Of a DNA stretch of 19,790 bases, positions 1-7,213 are shown in pieces. The stretch lies in contig CBDIID010000002.1 of NCBI GenBank assembly GCA_965279515.1, positions 1 through 19,790 on the forward strand, in the 5' to 3' direction. Each line of letters starts with the position of its first letter. The first letter of the stretch is position 1. The notes under the pieces are model-generated. The model had not been told where the DNA came from. It did not search any database and saw nothing but the letters and a program-made list of their open reading frames with translations. This DNA is from Turneriella sp. (GTDB lineage: Bacteria; Spirochaetota; Leptospiria; Turneriellales; Turneriellaceae). The position numbers and the translations under genes were made by a program.

Positions 1-587
1 TACAGAAACGATTGTGAAAGATCGTAGCGTCGTTGGGAATATTATCCAGAGTTGGCTTGAAACGTGGCTAAAATCAAAATCAATATCGTTTGATAAAAAC
101 CCCAATACTCAGGAGTCCCCGGACTTTTATCTTAATCCATCGGATAAAACGAGAGACCTACTCGAAGTGAAATGTTTTTATAAGAGCGCCAATTTTGATG
201 TGGGGAACTTCTTAGGATATTGTACGGAACTTGAACAGGCGCCGTATAAGCTGGGTGCTGACTATTTAATATTTTCGTATGCCATGTCGAGCGCTGGCGT
301 AGTATCTATTAAAGATATCTGGTTTGAAAAAGGTTTGGGAAATTTGTGGCCCCTCTGGGTCACATAAAATCAAGGTACAGGCAAAAAAAGGAGCCATAGT
401 TAATATCCGGCCTGTTTCTTGGTACTCTAATAGACCTGAATTCGCACCCTTCAATAATCAACTCTTATTTTTAAAGGCATTGAACGATACTTTGAGAATA
501 AGCACGGGAAATCATTTGTATGCTGCAGGTTGGCTGAAAAAAGTCCAGTCAGGCTACGAGACGTTTTCTGGCGTAAAGCTGACCTAG
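1..587 (+). pseudogene. 5'-truncated, frameshifted copy of the NlaIV/NgoBV-like restriction endonuclease
   Basis: Same sequence as 6628-7213 but reads GGTTTGAAAA at 321-330 where the other copies read GGTTGAAAA, splitting it into ORFs 14..367 and 324..587. Probably a consensus error. Confidence 0.75.
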
Positions 588-1892
588 AGAACGTAAGGAT
601 AGCTCTTTAATAACAGTGACTATTACGGTGTTACCAAGTAAGTCGAAAGCCTCATCATATTTTATCCCATCGATTTTGTAACTTTCTGGGAATCCAGAGA
701 GTCTAAGCCCCTCCCGCACCGTTAGCCGCCGCAGCCCATTCTTATCCGGGACCGCCATCCGTGTTACATCTGTTGCAACTAATGTCGGAGCAATGTCGTT
801 AGGGTCTAAAATTTTACTAATTTCGAAGCTAAGTTTTCCAGTAACTATATTATATCCTTTTTCTTTATCTTTGGCGTACTTCCGCTCTTCAAACACTTTT
901 CCATCAGCTGTTTTTTGCGTTACCACATCTTTGGGATGTTCAAATGTTAGGTAGCCCTTTTTAACTAGATCATCCAACATCTCTTTTAACTTAGAGTGCG
1001 GGTAAAAAGTTTTAATTTCTCTTAGAGTAAGGGGCATTCCATCCATCCATTTAATGCCCTTGGATTCTGCCCATTTCTTTTGTCGCCTCTGTTTGAGTAA
1101 GGCCGAGAGAAGTTTGCGCTGTTCTTTTGTTGTTTTACCTTTGATTTCGATGTCCCAGCTATGGATATTATTATCCCCGCCTCTTTTGTCTTTGATGCTT
1201 TTTCCGTGCAGTTCTCCCAACGTAAAATGCTTTAATAGCTTATCTACAAAGGGTGACTCCATACATTTTAGATCTTGCTCTAGGACAGAGGATAGTTTGC
1301 TTCTCTTCAGCAGAAAATTATCTAGAGAAAGTTCCTGTGTTTTCGAGCCAATAATGTAAATTCTTTTTCTATTCTGCGGCACACCGAAGTCGCTGGCGTT
1401 TAGTACTTTCCAAGAAACGTAGTAACCAAGGCCAGTCAGTTTCTCTAGAATAGTCTCTAGTGTTCTGCCGTATGGCGCAGATCTATCTAGTTGATCGTGG
1501 TTTACTAAGCCTTCGACATTTTCTAAAAGAAATCCTTGGGGCTGCTTCGCTGCAAGGATGCGCTCGATTTCAAAGAAAAGAGTCCCGCGAGTATCAAGGA
1601 AACCTTTTCTGCTCCCAGCCGCGCTAAATGCCTGACAAGGAAACCCTGCCAGCAGAAAATCAAAAGATGGTATCTCGGTTTCTTTAATCTTGGTGATGTC
1701 CCCGCAAACTGTGCTATCGGAAAAATTTTGTTGATAAACTTGAATAGCGAACGGTTTAATTTCAGACGTGAAAACGCACTCTGGTACAATTCCCATCTCT
1801 GTACAGGCGAGCTCAAAGCCTAGTCGCGTCCCGCCAATACCAGCAAAAAGATCTATAAAGCGTATTTTATTTCTTTTCATGTTTTCCGCCAT
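549..1892 (-). CDS. C5-cytosine DNA methyltransferase, M.NlaIV/M.NgoBV-like (predicted GGNNCC)
   Basis: Motifs I (FIDLFAGIGG), IV (GFPCQAFS), VI (ENV), VIII (QNRKRIY), IX (RRLTVREGLRL) and X (LGNTV). The variable region (KDKRGGDNNIHSWDIE, KKKW-like/WMDGMPLT, KILDPNDIAPTLVA) matches my recollection of M.NlaIV. The start may be 1880. Confidence 0.95.
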   Translation of the reverse strand: MAENMKRNKIRFIDLFAGIGGTRLGFELACTEMGIVPECVFTSEIKPFAIQVYQQNFSDSTVCGDITKIKETEIPSFDFLLAGFPCQAFSAAGSRKGFLDTRGTLFFEIERILAAKQPQGFLLENVEGLVNHDQLDRSAPYGRTLETILEKLTGLGYYVSWKVLNASDFGVPQNRKRIYIIGSKTQELSLDNFLLKRSKLSSVLEQDLKCMESPFVDKLLKHFTLGELHGKSIKDKRGGDNNIHSWDIEIKGKTTKEQRKLLSALLKQRRQKKWAESKGIKWMDGMPLTLREIKTFYPHSKLKEMLDDLVKKGYLTFEHPKDVVTQKTADGKVFEERKYAKDKEKGYNIVTGKLSFEISKILDPNDIAPTLVATDVTRMAVPDKNGLRRLTVREGLRLSGFPESYKIDGIKYDEAFDLLGNTVIVTVIKELSLRSLGQLYARKRLVA

Positions 1893-2010
1893 CCTTAGAT
1901 AAAGAAATATCAGCTTTTTGGCAGAGGCACCAGACTTATTTCCCCTGTTTCGGGGTCAAGGGATACTTTACGACAAGGATGAGATAACATCCGACCTCCA
2001 AGTTACCGCT

Positions 2011-2229
2011 TTAGTCGTTCTCAATTTCGATGCCGGGATATTTTTCCTCCACGGCTTTTTCAAGTTCCTCGCGGTCATAGTCTGATAACTCTTCAACTAT
2101 CTCAGACCTTTCCTCGTCGCATATAGAGGCGATGAAAAAGGTGTTCATCTCTCGATCAGGTGACTCGGAGATATATGCCTTAAAGACGGTCTTTGGTTGC
2201 GCAGATTCCTCTGCTTTATCTATCATCAT
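2011..2229 (-). CDS. Small highly acidic hypothetical protein (72 aa)
   Basis: Strong SD (AGGAGG) overlaps the rep stop codon. 22 D/E versus 8 K/R. Confidence 0.75.
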   Translation of the reverse strand: MMIDKAEESAQPKTVFKAYISESPDREMNTFFIASICDEERSEIVEELSDYDREELEKAVEEKYPGIEIEND

Positions 2230-2242
2230 CTAACTCCCCCTC

Positions 2243-2827
2243 CTATGCTTGCTGCTTTCCATCGGCATCAGAGCGCCCATCTAACCCCGGCAGCTGGGGC
2301 TGTTTGCCGCTATCCTTCAATTTGTAGCCCTTGACGAAGGCCAGACGATCGCCATTGAACATGAACCTGATATTTACAAAGAAATTCCCGTCATATGGGC
2401 TACGAAAAAGAAACTCTTTTTCCAGCAGCTCCCGTATCCCCCGCTGATATGTTCTTTCTTCGAGGTTGCTGGTTGCAGCCGCAAGGTGTACCTGATCCTT
2501 GCCGGGGTTTTCACGCACCTGCTTATAGACCAGTTCGAACACCGCCAGCCCAGCCTTAGAAAGCCCCGCTGCCTGTTTAAGGCCAGCGAAATACAGCTTC
2601 ACGAACCGTTCCTTGTCCACCTCTTCCCACTCATAGACCATCGCTCCCCCATGCCCGAGGATTTCCCCGGTGCCGTTATCCACGACCAAGCCTTTCTGGT
2701 CGTTGCCGAGCCGCGCCCGCTTCGGCTTTCTGATTTCGTTGGCATCTGGAACGCTGGGGTTCGTCTGATAAACAGGAATCCCCCTCTTTTCTTTAATAAC
2801 TGCGATGTTTTGTCGCTCTTCCGTCAT
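2243..2827 (-). CDS. repL: Plasmid replication initiator, RepL-like
   Basis: 194 aa with the pattern typical of RepL-type initiators: VVDNGTGEI, VDKERFVKLY, wHTH-like TYQRGIRELLEKEFL, FFVNIRFMFNGDRL. It sits next to a repeat array and a DnaA box. Confidence 0.78.
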   Translation of the reverse strand: MTEERQNIAVIKEKRGIPVYQTNPSVPDANEIRKPKRARLGNDQKGLVVDNGTGEILGHGGAMVYEWEEVDKERFVKLYFAGLKQAAGLSKAGLAVFELVYKQVRENPGKDQVHLAAATSNLEERTYQRGIRELLEKEFLFRSPYDGNFFVNIRFMFNGDRLAFVKGYKLKDSGKQPQLPGLDGRSDADGKQQA

Positions 2828-3008
2828 TTGTGATTCTCTTTTTTGTCGTTATAGCGACACCACTTTGGCACTAAAGCGACATATTTTCAACACAGTTTTG
2901 TCGCTTTACCGACTATTTTTGACGGAGTGCCGACAGAATCTGTCGGACGCCATTCATAAATTTCAATGGGTTAGGTATATCTCTCTTCTTAGATATAATA
3001 AACCCTTA

Positions 3009-3061
3009 TCTACCACAGCGCCGTAGCGCCCCCAAGGAGCTGGCGAAGGTGCTGTGGTGGA
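3009..3061 (+). other. Hairpin A: 14-bp stem with a 25-nt loop carrying the conserved 21-mer
   Basis: TCTACCACAGCGCC (3009-3022) pairs with GGTGCTGTGGTGGA (3048-3061), including two G-T/U pairs. Loop core AGCGCCCCCAAGGAGCTGGCG. Confidence 0.75.
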
Positions 3062-3091
3062 TTCCAATTTCCCTTTTAAGAACCTCGGCAG

Positions 3092-3100
3092 TTATCCACA
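3092..3100 (+). promoter_or_regulatory. DnaA box
   Basis: Perfect TTATCCACA next to the putative origin. Confidence 0.7.
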
Positions 3101-3445
3101 ACCCTATAAAACCGGAAAATTGCCCCTCTGGGGGGTAAGAGAGGCTCGGCAGGGCGAGCGCTAGCTGGGCTTGCAGTTCTAAGCCCCCTGCCCCGCGCTA
3201 ATGGCTTTTTAGAAGGCTTTCCGTAGGGCGAAGCCCTGCACCCGTTCGAGGGTCTTTTTGATGCGCCTGCCGCGTACCAAAGTTTCTGTTCAAGGAGGAA
3301 CAGAACCGCTATCGCTCCGCTTGTGTATTTTAGACCGTGAGCGCTTTGGCGCTACAGAGGGTCGTTTGGTATCTAGGGAGCTGCGTGTCGTGGTGCGCAA
3401 CAGACTATCAAATATAGCATAAGTACTATGAAAAGTCAAGGAAAA

Positions 3446-3865
3446 TTAGCCAAATATCCGGGCAAAAAGCCCCTTCTTTTCTGGTTTCTCCTGCCGCTGG
3501 TCGGCCAGCAGCCGAACACTTACGATTTGATCTTCCAGCAGTTTCATTGTCTTAGAGTGGTTTTCTTCTGCTTTTCCGAGCTGATCTTGCAATAAATCGA
3601 TCTGCTCACGTAATAGTTTATTCTCCGCCTCTAGCACCCTGTTATCGTTGCCGGAAACTTGCTGGATACCAGAGGAAACTGGTTCGCTCTGGTTTGTGGG
3701 TGCCTCGCTCTTAGGTGGATACACCCTGAACAATTCGGCAGGGTCTATGTCCCATTCGCCGTGGTCGTTCTTTTTAGCAGAAAGTTTCCCCTTAACAATG
3801 GCTTTCTTAATACCCGCTTTGGTCATTCCGACACGATCAGCGGCCTCTAGCAGTGATATTCCCAT
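3446..3865 (-). CDS. HTH + coiled-coil protein with C-terminal amphipathic tail (pSK1 Par/RacA-like architecture), candidate partition protein
   Basis: Start reassigned to ATG 3865 (SD AGGAG), giving 139 aa. MerR/excisionase-like HTH (SLLEAADRVGMTKAGIKKAIVKGKLSA...GEWDIDPAEL), a linker, heptad repeats, and the tail KKGLFARIFG. Confidence 0.8.
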   Translation of the reverse strand: MGISLLEAADRVGMTKAGIKKAIVKGKLSAKKNDHGEWDIDPAELFRVYPPKSEAPTNQSEPVSSGIQQVSGNDNRVLEAENKLLREQIDLLQDQLGKAEENHSKTMKLLEDQIVSVRLLADQRQEKPEKKGLFARIFG

Positions 3866-3994
3866 GTGGATACTCCTGAAACTGGTTTCCCCGCTTTTTA
3901 GGGTACTGGTTTCCACCCTTCATTGGAAGCCCCTGCCCTCGGTATGCTGCGGTTTCCACCAAGTTTTGCCCCTGAGTTTGCTTTGGTATCCACC
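3866..3994. repeat. RGTWTCC(AC) repeat array upstream of the par-like gene
   Basis: GTGGATACT 3866 (inverted), GGTTTCC 3884, GGTTTCCAC 3908, GGTTTCCACC 3951, GGTATCCACC 3985. Confidence 0.7.
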
Positions 3995-4106
3995 TGAAAT
4001 TAACCAGTCGTTAATATTTTGCCGATATTATCGCTACTCATACCCACACTCTCAGGCATCGGAATCCAGCTCGACACCCGAGCATTGTAAATTTCGGCCC
4101 CCTGCA

Positions 4107-4143
4107 AGGGCGCACTTACGCATTGCCCCCAAGAGGGCAATGC
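4107..4143 (-). other. oriT: oriT, MOBQ (RSF1010/pSC101-type)
   Basis: The minus strand reads inverted repeat GCATTGCCC-TCTTGG-GGGCAATGC, then G-TAAGTGCG^CCCT. nic predicted between 4111 and 4110. Confidence 0.9.
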
Positions 4144-4351
4144 ACGCGCGGTCAGGCGCTTCGCCCTGACAACCAGACCAAGGGGCGCGGTGCGTCCCCT
4201 TTGGAAACCCGGCCCCGGATATTTGCTTCTGGCAACTATCCCGGAGCCATGCACCCGGCGCAGCCGGGCAGGGGGATACCCCCTGAAACCCCGCCCGGTG
4301 AACGTCCTCCGATGTCGGAGCGTACCGGGCAAGAAAGACGGAGGCGCACCC

Positions 4352-5830
4352 TTGGCGATATTCCATGCCTCCGTCAGGACTATCAGCCGCGCCTCCGGGC
4401 GGTCTGCGACCGCTGCCGCCGCGTATCGGTCTGGCACCGCCATCACCGACACCCGCGACGGCCTGACCCACGACTACACCCGCAAGGGCGGTGTAGCGGG
4501 GTCATTCATCGTCCTGCCAGCCGGGGCAGGGGCTTCTGGCTTCCTCGACCGCTCTATCCTCTGGAACGCTGCCGAGGCTGCCGAGAAGCGCAAGGACGCT
4601 CGCGTAGCCCGCGAGCTGATCCTTGCCCTGCCGCACGAGCTGGACGATGAGGGCAGGGAAGCCGCCGCCAGAGACATGGCGGAATGGCTTGCCGCCCGGT
4701 ACGGGGTCGCCGTGGACGTATCCCGGCATAACCCCGACCGTCAGGGCGACACTCGCAACCATCACGCCCACCTGTTATTTACCACCCGCGCTGTGACCGC
4801 CGACGGCATGGGCGCCAAAACCCGCCAGCTGGACGACCACAAAACAGGGCCGCTCGAAGTCCAGGCCATTCGCCTGGCCTGGGAGTCGATTGCCAACGCC
4901 GCGCTCGAGCGGGCAGGGGTCGCCGCCCGCATCGACCACCGCAGCCATGAGGAACTTGGCATCGAGCTGCCGCCGCAGATTCATGTTGGTGTCCGGGCCC
5001 GCGGTATGAGCCGCCGCGGGGTGAAGCCGCGGGATAGTGTCGTGCATGTGGACTTCCGGGGCCGGGAAATAAATTATCCCGCCATCGATGCAGGCGGCAC
5101 CCGCGAAGAACACAACGCCGAGATTATATCCCTGCAGCAGTACCGCGACACCATGCAGGAGCAGCGGGAGCAACAGGCCGGGCTGCACGAAGAGGAAATA
5201 CTTGAGAACCAAATCCTTGAGCTGCAGGAGCGGGCAGGGGATCTGCACGGCGACATAACCGCCATGGAATCCATGCTCCACAGTCACCTGTTATCCGACG
5301 ACCTCCGGGCGCGTATCCGTATCGCGCTAGAAAAAGCCATTGTCGCCATCTTCTACCGCCACCAGCACGAAACCGATTATCTCCGGGCGCGGGCAGAGGC
5401 GCAGCGGCAGGAAAAGGAAATCGAGCAGAAGAAGGCTGAATACCATCGTATGCAGCAGCAGATTGTCGAGCTACAGATCCGGCAGAAAGAGCTGCAAGCG
5501 CAGTATGCCGCTAATCGGGAGCTGGCCGGCAGGGTGGAACACATGGCGGCCGCGCTGGCTCTGCCGGCCGCCGGCATTAAAATTCAAATACCGTTAACCA
5601 TACGCTTCGAAGAAGTGGCTATGCAGGGTAGGGTGCAGAAGCAGGCTACCGCCGAGCTGATACAGGCGGTAACTTCACCACCGCCCGTGGTGAGCAAACC
5701 CGCGCAAGCCACGCTTGAGCTGCGGCAGAGTGTCCTGCAGGTCAAAGAGCTGCTGGCGCGATCAAACCAACCGAAGCGGGCAGGGGCGCAGCGCGTGACC
5801 GTCACGGCTAATATTTCTATGCGGAAATAA
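4352..5830 (+). CDS. mobA: MobA/MobL family (MOBQ) relaxase with C-terminal coiled-coil extension
   Basis: Start reassigned to TTG 4352 (SD GGAGG 4340-4344), giving MAIFHASVRTISRASGRSATAAAAYRSG, 492 aa. Also WNAAEAAEKRKDARVARE, ALPHEL, the His triad H...NHHAHLLFTTR, and RIDHRS. Confidence 0.93.
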   Translation: MAIFHASVRTISRASGRSATAAAAYRSGTAITDTRDGLTHDYTRKGGVAGSFIVLPAGAGASGFLDRSILWNAAEAAEKRKDARVARELILALPHELDDEGREAAARDMAEWLAARYGVAVDVSRHNPDRQGDTRNHHAHLLFTTRAVTADGMGAKTRQLDDHKTGPLEVQAIRLAWESIANAALERAGVAARIDHRSHEELGIELPPQIHVGVRARGMSRRGVKPRDSVVHVDFRGREINYPAIDAGGTREEHNAEIISLQQYRDTMQEQREQQAGLHEEEILENQILELQERAGDLHGDITAMESMLHSHLLSDDLRARIRIALEKAIVAIFYRHQHETDYLRARAEAQRQEKEIEQKKAEYHRMQQQIVELQIRQKELQAQYAANRELAGRVEHMAAALALPAAGIKIQIPLTIRFEEVAMQGRVQKQATAELIQAVTSPPPVVSKPAQATLELRQSVLQVKELLARSNQPKRAGAQRVTVTANISMRK

Positions 5831-5880
5831 AAACCCGCCCTACGCCAGCTCCTTGGGGGCGCTCCGGGCGGGTTTTTATT
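5826..5880. terminator. Bidirectional terminator-like hairpin B with a 25-nt loop carrying the conserved 21-mer
   Basis: Perfect 15-bp inverted repeat AATAAAAACCCGCCC / GGGCGGGTTTTTATT between the convergent stop codons, with T-tracts on both strands. Confidence 0.8.
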
Positions 5881-6205
5881 ATTTACGGACGGAAGCCCTT
5901 GCGCCCTCATCCGACCACAAAAGCCGCTGACAGTCGCCGCGCTCGATGGTGGATTTTTTGCGTCGCACGTTGTCGCCGACATTGACACCGGGAGGGGCTT
6001 TAGCCCCGGCATCGAGGGAGAGGACTTCGACCGCCCGTATATGCAGCTGCAGGAAGTCTCCCAAACCCTTAACCTCCGCCGTCAGAATCTGCTCGCCTAT
6101 CTTGTCAGGCTTGCCACGCTTTTTATTTGGTGCCGACCATATCGGCTCTTTCCACTTGATAACATCTGCGACAATCGGGGAGGGGCAGGGCGTCCAAGTG
6201 CTCAT
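5879..6205 (-). CDS. Hypothetical basic protein (108 aa)
   Basis: ATG overlaps the upstream stop (ATGA at 6205-6202) and the ORF ends at the terminator. 19 K/R versus 13 D/E. Confidence 0.75.
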   Translation of the reverse strand: MSTWTPCPSPIVADVIKWKEPIWSAPNKKRGKPDKIGEQILTAEVKGLGDFLQLHIRAVEVLSLDAGAKAPPGVNVGDNVRRKKSTIERGDCQRLLWSDEGARASVRK

Positions 6206-6381
6206 CGCTGCCCACGCATAAGTTTTACCAGATCTTCCAAAAGCTCCACTATCTGCTCTTGCGCCGCCGCTATTCTTTCGATGTTAACCCCCATATCCTC
6301 ATCGGCGCTTTCTTTGGCATTGCGATCCTCTTCCCATCGTTCTTCCTCGGCCTCTGCCGCCTCATCCTTTTTCTTGCTCAT
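6202..6381 (-). CDS. Small acidic hypothetical protein (59 aa), not in the ORF track
   Basis: MSKKKDEAAEAEEERWEEDRNAKESADEDMGVNIERIAAAQEQIVELLEDLVKLMRGQR. SD AAGGA upstream and ATGA overlap with the next gene. Confidence 0.75.
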   Translation of the reverse strand: MSKKKDEAAEAEEERWEEDRNAKESADEDMGVNIERIAAAQEQIVELLEDLVKLMRGQR

Positions 6382-6541
6382 CTTTCGTCCTTATGTCCGC
6401 GCCATTCCCATGGGCTAAAAGCTGCATGGCTAATTGTCTGATAATGTATCTTCTGGGAAAAGCGTCTGTTATGCTTTGATAAGATTGATCTTGTTAATTA
6501 GACTGTTTCACAGCTTGCCGATATAGACAATAGGATTAGAA

Positions 6542-7213
6542 ATGTCCCCAGCGCAGAAAATTTTTAAACTTCTCAAAGACAGCGGCGTTCTGTCGGCAAC
6601 AGGAACGGTAACTTTTGACTTTATGAGTACAGAAACGATTGTGAAAGATCGTAGCGTCGTTGGGAATATTATCCAGAGTTGGCTTGAAACGTGGCTAAAA
6701 TCAAAATCAATATCGTTTGATAAAAACCCCAATACTCAGGAGTCCCCGGACTTTTATCTTAATCCATCGGATAAAACGAGAGACCTACTCGAAGTGAAAT
6801 GTTTTTATAAGAGCGCCAATTTTGATGTGGGGAACTTCTTAGGATATTGTACGGAACTTGAACAGGCGCCGTATAAGCTGGGTGCTGACTATTTAATATT
6901 TTCGTATGCCATGTCGAGCGCTGGCGTAGTATCTATTAAAGATATCTGGTTGAAAAAGGTTTGGGAAATTTGTGGCCCCTCTGGGTCACATAAAATCAAG
7001 GTACAGGCAAAAAAAGGAGCCATAGTTAATATCCGGCCTGTTTCTTGGTACTCTAATAGACCTGAATTCGCACCCTTCAATAATCAACTCTTATTTTTAA
7101 AGGCATTGAACGATACTTTGAGAATAAGCACGGGAAATCATTTGTATGCTGCAGGTTGGCTGAAAAAAGTCCAGTCAGGCTACGAGACGTTTTCTGGCGT
7201 AAAGCTGACCTAG
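6542..7213 (+). CDS. Type II restriction endonuclease, NgoBV/NlaIV family (predicted GGNNCC)
   Basis: PD-(D/E)xK core (VVGNIIQSWL...NTQESPDFYL...LLEVKCF...NFDVGNF), plus ADYLIFSY, IKDIWLKKVWEI and NIRP. Adjacent to the NlaIV-like methyltransferase. Confidence 0.88.
   Translation: MSPAQKIFKLLKDSGVLSATGTVTFDFMSTETIVKDRSVVGNIIQSWLETWLKSKSISFDKNPNTQESPDFYLNPSDKTRDLLEVKCFYKSANFDVGNFLGYCTELEQAPYKLGADYLIFSYAMSSAGVVSIKDIWLKKVWEICGPSGSHKIKVQAKKGAIVNIRPVSWYSNRPEFAPFNNQLLFLKALNDTLRISTGNHLYAAGWLKKVQSGYETFSGVKLT

Follow-up and report, generated by a model that had tools for sequence, protein, structure and literature searches.

How a small plasmid might be inherited when no partition NTPase accompanies it is the question raised by this locus. 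The stretch of DNA analysed here (the window, 19,790 nucleotides) is one whole contig, and the initial annotation had proposed that a single protein encoded in it binds repeats next to its own gene and anchors a plasmid to the membrane. Since the window is an assembly concatemer of three unit copies, all of the parts listed in Table 1 recur at +6626 and +13252. Short-read contigs from three of the four runs examined (12 runs are listed) join 6949 to 324, showing that the 6,626-bp unit is a real circle; two runs gave closing contigs of 6,656 bp, and the third closing contig came from a run of another study. The plasmid encodes an NgoBV-family endonuclease, a C5 methyltransferase, a MobQ relaxase, a RepL-like initiator, three small unmatched ORFs and the Exc1-like protein considered below.

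Table 1. Features of the first copy of the plasmid unit, in window positions
Feature	Position	Strand	Remarks
Circular plasmid unit, 6,626 bp	324..6949	.	Three tandem copies fill the window (assembly concatemer)
Small ORFs of 72, 108 and 59 aa	2011-2229, 5879-6205, 6202-6381 (-)		Two very acidic; no family matches
RepL-like replication initiator	2243..2827	-	Same strand as the Exc1-like gene and 3' of it
Likely replication origin	2784..3100	.	Iteron-like TGTCGCT repeats and, at 3092, TTATCCACA, which we take to be a DnaA box
Exc1-like gene, 139 aa	3446..3865	-	ATG at 3865, stop ends at 3446
Residues 130-139, KKGLFARIFG, predicted amphipathic membrane-targeting helix	3449..3478	-	From the model and tail conservation
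Residues 72-125, predicted long helix/coiled coil	3491..3652	-	Ends with conserved LL(A/T)DQR
Residues 51-71, low-confidence linker	3653..3715	-	Linker DNA contains the intragenic repeat cluster
Intragenic repeat cluster	3653..3722	.	GGAWAC at 3653, 3664, 3674 (11 and 10 bp apart) and 3717
Residues 1-50, predicted MerR/Xis-type winged helix-turn-helix head	3716..3865	-	Carries the family signature DPAELFRVYP
Upstream repeat cluster	3866..3994	.	Over the RBS and presumed promoter; GGAWAC at 3868, 3885, 3909, 3952, 3986
Likely MOBQ oriT	4107..4143	-	TAAGTGCGCCCT, presumably the MOBQ nick-site motif, adjoining a 24-nt palindrome
mobA, MobQ relaxase	4352..5830	+	Divergent from the Exc1-like gene; TTG start inferred

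The NgoBV-family endonuclease and C5 methyltransferase genes, at 549-1892 (-) and 6542-7213 (+), are convergent and overlapping, with approximately 41% GC, and as a possible addiction module they would be a confounder of stability tests. Near 323, the first copy alone lacks 1 bp, which breaks the endonuclease frame; this is probably an assembly error. The iteron-like TGTCGCT repeats of the likely origin form a set separate from the GGAWAC repeats described below. A 29-nt inverted repeat (93% complementary, 3021-3049 and 5839-5867) flanks the block containing the Exc1-like gene, oriT and mobA, and the pair may represent single-strand initiation sites or module ends. Directly past the Exc1-like stop codon begins a strong sigma70-like promoter match (3439-3411, minus strand; TTGACT-17-TG-TATATT, 10/12). 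The interval of approximately 580 bp from there to repL contains no long ORF, and this promoter possibly serves a rep leader or a small RNA.

Rep and MobA had their top plasmid matches in Alphaproteobacteria, so the earlier description of a proteobacterial-looking plasmid holds for the genes; the genome binned with the contig, however, is that of a spirochaete. The assembly chromosome carries spirochaetal FlaA genes above the Pfam cut-off, and the assembly 16S is only ~80% like the best full-length matches in the plasmid collection, with what we take to be a Leptospirales-like signature. A cyanobacterial host was ruled out, PsaA/B being absent. The runs containing the plasmid resemble mixed communities, a search of 19 further host-family genomes gave no Exc1-like homologue, and by tetranucleotide distance 5.4% of 242 chromosome windows lie farther out than the plasmid. 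The plasmid host may not be a proteobacterium.

The 139-aa ORF with its terminus KKGLFARIFG was found as annotated. A GGAG ribosome-binding site lies 7-10 nt 5' of the ATG, and the start Met is common to the two closest metagenome relatives. We built an AF2 model on an 80-sequence alignment (mean pLDDT 80.7), which predicted helices at residues 5-12 and 16-24, strands at 30-32 and 38-40, a helix at 42-48, a long helix at 72-125 with a partial heptad pattern, and a last helix at 133-138. The homodimer prediction scored 0.27 against a mark of 0.42 and was counted for neither side. A fold search with the predicted head matched Xis, BldC, SoxR, RacA and pSK1 Par with Z of 5.6-7.5, none outstanding: pSK1 Par (8csh_A) aligned at Z 5.7 with an rmsd of 2.1 over 48 residues and 5i41 at Z 5.6, Xis (Z 7.5) and BldC (Z 7.2) outscored Par, and the tool calls all these Z values common. 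Foldseek gave a MerR-type match to the head with a probability of 0.98 and E 0.1, and none at E<=0.001. HTH_17 was matched at E<=0.05 by 67 of the 80 aligned homologues, the window protein by itself giving no match. ESM Atlas matches were limited to HTH clusters without a name and to 'plasmid replication DNA-binding protein'. Taken together, the AlphaFold and profile comparisons envisaged by the initial annotation predict a head folded like those of pSK1 Par and RacA, with a tail like that of Par.

By its sequence, the 139-aa protein is a member of the large Exc1-like family and kin to ColE1 Exc1 and Acinetobacter OrfX. We found 85 close homologues, 9,391 clusters at 50% identity (E<=0.001) and 245 GTDB stretches, the best 80 of the 245 being used. 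An Exc1-like group of small alphaproteobacterial plasmids was named by Maj et al. 2013, with no function assigned in the account given there (PMC3832669). The window protein is 38% identical with the pYAN-1 member of that study over 141 columns, its whole length, which places it within the Exc1-like definition of at least 30%, and tblastn with the window protein also matches records of the pSX-Qyy, pUT2, pMARC2 and pAES4 type. The family profile aligned with ColE1 Exc1 at a probability of 97.8 and E 7.5e-13 over 132 columns with the same tail, and the direct pair gave 21% identity at E 3e-5; relatives of ColE1 Exc1 are present on 1,469 of 72,556 plasmid records. In its passages on the Exc1-like proteins, PMC3832669 notes the HTH and mentions neither a membrane helix nor binding sites. 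Exc1-like genes usually lie directly 3' of rep, whereas the window gene is ~620 bp 5' of repL and faces oriT; gene context is also variable among the relatives. 'Entry exclusion' was not taken up as a rival reading, since PMC3832669 reports that an exclusion role was ruled out for exc1/exc2. In the experiments described in PMC6234761, mob-exc1-exc2 was cloned and biofilm alone was tested.

Acinetobacter OrfX corresponds to NCBIfam NF038291 (rep_pAB02_ORF2), a model matched at E<=0.001 by all 80 of the aligned homologues; the window protein scored 53.4 bits (E 3.7e-14), below the curated cut-off of 85 bits. The family profile aligned with OrfX by hhalign at a probability of 97.8 over 95 columns, and the OrfX tail is basic-aromatic. 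Unlike the window gene, OrfX overlaps the end of rep and lacks an upstream cluster, and its GCAAC/GCATG words cluster in a second low-complexity region (L127:1870-2100, pABVA01; seen post hoc). The OrfX site array is thus possibly wholly intragenic.

The initial annotation had compared the tail with a membrane-targeting helix, and this likeness was borne out at the level of prediction: the tail KKGLFARIFG is MinD-like and near-identical to that of pSK1 Par (KKGFWSRLFGG), and the predicted helix 133-138 puts L, F, I and F on one face. The corresponding tails are KKRGFWSRLFGR in ColE1 Exc1 and KKRGLFGRVL in OrfX. We then surveyed 148 representatives with lengths of 110-260 aa, two of 150 listed entries being shorter or longer. 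An aromatic amphipathic-type terminal motif was present in 108 of the 148, compared with 17/148 in a control window, and a predicted transmembrane helix took the place of the tail in another 14 (N-terminal control, 0/148). The remaining 26/148 showed neither pattern, several of them looking amphipathic by eye. The end was net basic in 140/148, and F or W occurred within the last 14 residues in 139/148. According to the published descriptions of RocS, one such helix is too weak and two are enough for membrane binding (PMC11500499; RicO preprint; PMC13042908), and RocS stayed partly functional after its helix was swapped for a transmembrane segment (PMC11500499; RicO preprint).

Next, we analysed the repeats. 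At least five RGTWTCC repeats had been claimed over the RBS and promoter region, and five were found there, at 3884, 3908, 3951 and 3985 on the plus strand and 3868 on the minus strand, four of the five extending to RGTWTCCAC. The cluster also contains three copies of GGTGGAWACC and the inverted pair GAAAC-CA-GTTTC. When overlapping copies were counted and motif choice was allowed for, five upstream copies were reached by 18/150 and 86/500 shuffles and were thus not significant. Non-overlapping counts beat chance: three GGTGGAWACC occurred in 0/1000 shuffles, five GGAWAC in 6/1000, and five copies of a 7-mer with two degenerate places in 2/200. Five more GGAWAC sites, which the initial annotation did not mention, lie within the Exc1-like gene, namely the four of the intragenic cluster in Table 1 and one at 3784. 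The resulting ten GGAWAC sites in 3650-3994 (345 bp) were matched by 0/500 shuffles and gave the highest score among 126 plasmid windows, and the best diagonal between the intragenic and upstream clusters at this locus is 203 bp. This second GGAWAC cluster, in linker-coding DNA ~200 bp downstream of the first, is a new observation. Neither a linker-encoded site cluster nor membrane tethering by Exc1-like proteins or OrfX was found in the literature searched, which lay mostly outside subscription journals.

The same arrangement was then sought in homologous loci. We started from 112 loci with a match; the anchor motif was present in 109, flank and length were sufficient in 104, and filtering to below 60% identity left 54. 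In these, 100 bp of upstream DNA was compared with 75 bp of linker-coding DNA for shared six-mers. Upstream and linker DNA shared a mean of 12.2 six-mers, whereas the mean was 4.3 when HTH-coding DNA was used, 4.4 with coil-coding DNA and 4.3 with the upstream DNA of other loci, with p about 1e-8, a value that, like every cross-locus p-value, is inflated by kinship among the loci. A locus's own upstream DNA ranked strictly first of 54 in 21 loci. The per-locus shuffle test was passed by 29/54 loci (coil control, 5/54) and failed by 25/54. Word sharing peaked 40-80 nt past the DPAE codons, just over the linker, and the best upstream-linker diagonal was 182-299 bp, with a median of 214, in 34/54 loci. 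The repeat words vary with the clade (GAAAC, GCAAC, GTAAC, CTAAC and AGAAC), and the motif tracks the recognition helix with a partial r of 0.24 compared with 0.14 for the rest of the head, kin not being independent in this comparison. Taken singly, the held-out loci gave p 0.32 (ColE1), p 0.11 (pHW42) and p 0.31 (pAMI3) in the shared-k-mer test, none of them significant. The motif G[AG]GACA, derived from the ColE1 upstream DNA, occurred at both places in ColE1, pHW42 and L131 (three of six enterobacterial or pseudomonad loci), only at the upstream one in L133, and was absent from L132 and L134.

We compared the locus further with the known systems of similar design. The window protein shares with pSK1 Par a predicted MerR-type head, a predicted coiled coil, a near-identical tail and repeats just upstream, with no NTPase. 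However, Par is 245 aa long, carries DUF536 and has 12-bp repeats upstream only, no intragenic copy of the pSK1 par repeat being found, whereas the window protein has 139 aa, lacks DUF536 and has 6-10 bp sites in both orientations with a second cluster inside the gene. The family profile aligned with Par by hhalign over the head only (probability 39%, E 3e-4) and found 8csh in the PDB weakly, at E 0.89; the similarity to Par is weak and confined to head and tail. DUF536 (PF04394) was not matched by the whole protein at E<=1 or by its last 51 aa at E<=10, compared with a match of 3e-6 for Par, and it is not among the 25 families listed for the 80 homologues; in RocS, DUF536 is needed for function. 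We therefore filed the protein, despite its Par/RocS/RicO-like design, as Exc1-like and not as Par. The likeness to pSK1 Par drawn in the initial annotation stands for the layout, the predicted head fold and the tail, but not for DUF536 or for repeats that are upstream only.

As far as published descriptions allow the comparison, RocS of Streptococcus and RicO of Staphylococcus, which anchor the chromosome to the membrane, likewise combine a wHTH, a coiled coil and a MinD-like C-terminal helix. They differ in being chromosomal, with membrane binding shown; as described, they were surveyed in Firmicutes only, and the sites of RicO are nine dispersed 18-bp sequences. For Firmicutes, these accounts have already proposed that Par-like proteins act as membrane tethers (PMC11500499; RicO preprint). 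Bacillus TubY, as characterized in PMC7762940, combines a MerR-like HTH and a coiled coil with an amphipathic tail that is induced by lipid and depends on oligomerization, but it serves the TubZ/TubR NTPase system, and no such system is present on the window plasmid.

Chromosomal relatives were also found. In two Methylocapsa chromosomes a 12-mer occurs ten times, eight of them in local pairs 202-204 bp apart; it adjoins an Exc1-like gene in each genome (L058/G020 and L070/G021), and a second pair elsewhere in G020 perhaps marks a paralogue. These are mainly local site pairs, unlike a ricS-like network, and autoregulation would fit them too. Chromosomal members in Beijerinckiaceae and some Bacteroidota contigs (also L005, L010, L020, L038 and L071) retain the tail and paired sites, and possibly represent domesticated RocS-like anchors in Gram-negative bacteria.

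The initial annotation had stated that the plasmid carries no NTPase gene, and none was detected by a Pfam/NCBIfam scan together with a ParA search. The scan gave no NTPase family match among the eight main plasmid ORFs, being the sole cover for ParM and TubZ, and the ParA-family search of the assembly gave seven matches with none on this contig. The one Walker-A-like string, at ~6244, precedes the first start codon available to the 108-aa ORF. On another small contig of the assembly (38 kb), two ParA matches with identical score lie 23.5 kb apart, which suggests another partly duplicated plasmid or phage circle. Among 14 whole plasmids with a family member, none has an annotated ParA/ParB in gene tables that are themselves incomplete; the pMARC2 AAA ATPase is described as SMC-like in the part of PMC3832669 that treats it. 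We scanned 70 of 82 neighbour ORFs, the 12 from annotated plasmids being omitted, and found six known Rep families, three relaxases and one ParA-like protein. On Paracoccus plasmids, as reported in PMC3832669, an exc1-like gene is present in 13/14 and the sole plasmid without one is the sole plasmid with a ParAB module, an exclusion that is expected by chance about one time in 14.

What, then, does the protein do? We favour, with a probability of roughly 55%, a cis-acting DNA-membrane tether that aids plasmid inheritance without an NTPase. That the Exc1-like protein is a DNA-membrane tether we consider quite likely; that inheritance is its main job we would put a little above an even chance. 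Beyond the gene, its two repeat clusters, its family, its conserved tail and the lack of a detected NTPase gene, we infer the steps from RocS, RicO and Par. The winged-helix head would load on the GGAWAC clusters before and inside its own gene, and the bound protein would repress that gene, because the sites overlap the RBS. The coiled coil would oligomerize, and clustered oligomers would offer several weak helices at once; we propose that helices presented together in this way would bind the inner membrane only when the protein is on plasmid DNA. The C-terminal helix would insert into the inner membrane, tethering the plasmid, and the tethered copies would spread along the growing membrane or cell surface and so escape clumping and one-sided capture at division. 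On the whole, the layout and mechanism first proposed fit all of the sequence and structure tests that were run, whereas the family, the host, DUF536 and the repeat location needed correction. Plasmids this small often exist in several copies and may do without a partition system, 5.8-11 copies being cited for OrfX plasmids in PMC13141974, and many small plasmids with a family member also have toxin-antitoxin or restriction systems. On a wider and more tentative view, to which we give somewhat less than an even chance, the Exc1-like proteins, OrfX and ColE1 Exc1 may together make up a single, very large branch of this Par/RocS/RicO design in Gram-negative bacteria, that is, a motor-less single-gene partition cassette with its centromere partly in its own coding sequence and with arrays ~200 bp apart that change with the recognition helix.

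The paired sites resemble a looped operator in overlapping the RBS and lying ~200 bp apart, and the protein could instead be a membrane-anchored, self-regulating DNA organizer that takes part in replication, copy control, the resolution of multimers by an Xer-type system or the shuffling of modules rather than in segregation as such. The genes lie beside initiators of several families, directly next to an annotated initiator on 6/14 plasmids, and OrfX, called unknown in function, has been proposed to have a role in dif-module movement in the accounts given of it (PMC13141974; PMC9927589; PMC13621841). However, the Reps found alongside are unrelated (RepL, RPA, Rep_3, TrfA and RepC) and RNA-primed ColE1 origins also occur, indicating that the Exc1-like protein is not the partner of one Rep; pMAC replication is reported, in the relevant part of PMC9927589, to have no need for OrfX; and the distances separating the two clusters gave no support for helical phasing (best period 11.9 bp, p 0.05 across all 34 loci; p 0.07-0.10 within the 10-11.5 band). 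We consider such an organizer unlikely.

A mobilization accessory is suggested by position, because the gene faces mobA across oriT: in a MobC-like role, the protein would occupy DNA close to oriT and deliver the relaxosome to the coupling protein that a helper plasmid provides in the membrane. The window and its two closest relatives all show this divergent arrangement of the gene and mobA around oriT, and none of them yielded another candidate for mobC. A further pair of GGAWAC sites, at 4203 and 4274, falls between oriT and mobA, and 26/41 plasmid matches are typed mobilizable. On the other hand, 10/41 are typed non-mobilizable, some relatives share their plasmid with a distinct protein annotated as MobC or as a mobilization protein, and the nearest repeat is ~115 bp from the nick motif. 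Many MobC proteins have a ribbon-helix-helix fold, whereas the window protein is modelled as a winged helix and has no MobC family match. Thus the MobC-like role that the initial annotation had named as its own refutation retains the gene arrangement in its favour, but the family search and the model speak against it, and we regard it as improbable. The close relative L082:696-1406 (59% identity) has a divergent mobA with an internal shortening (236 aa) and retains both the Exc1-like gene and the sites upstream of it intact, followed by a toxin-antitoxin-like pair; this is a weak hint that the Exc1-like gene is independent of mobilization. It is very improbable that the protein is an excisionase-like recombination directionality factor or a plain MerR/BldC-type regulator with an incidental tail: although Xis and BldC are its best fold matches, 32/80 homologues match TIGR01764 and some records are annotated 'recombinase', the window plasmid has no integrase or resolvase, these account for 2/70 neighbours, and a membrane-type tail that occurs in two chemically different forms in 122/148 homologues is not incidental.

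NTPase-free segregation of DNA by one DNA-binding protein is posed as an open question in the RocS paper (PMC11500499), and single-protein segregation of this kind has so far been studied only in Firmicutes. If the DNA-membrane tether is true, the mechanism would extend to thousands of Gram-negative proteins, as counted by the clusters above, and ColE1 Exc1 and Acinetobacter OrfX, both long unexplained, would acquire a function. On the wider view set out earlier, small plasmids long thought to segregate randomly, ColE1 included, would be membrane-tethered. A tether of this kind would also bring the question within reach of laboratory E. coli by means of a 0.55-kb cassette, and the second cluster in the linker-coding DNA predicts specific binding sites member by member.
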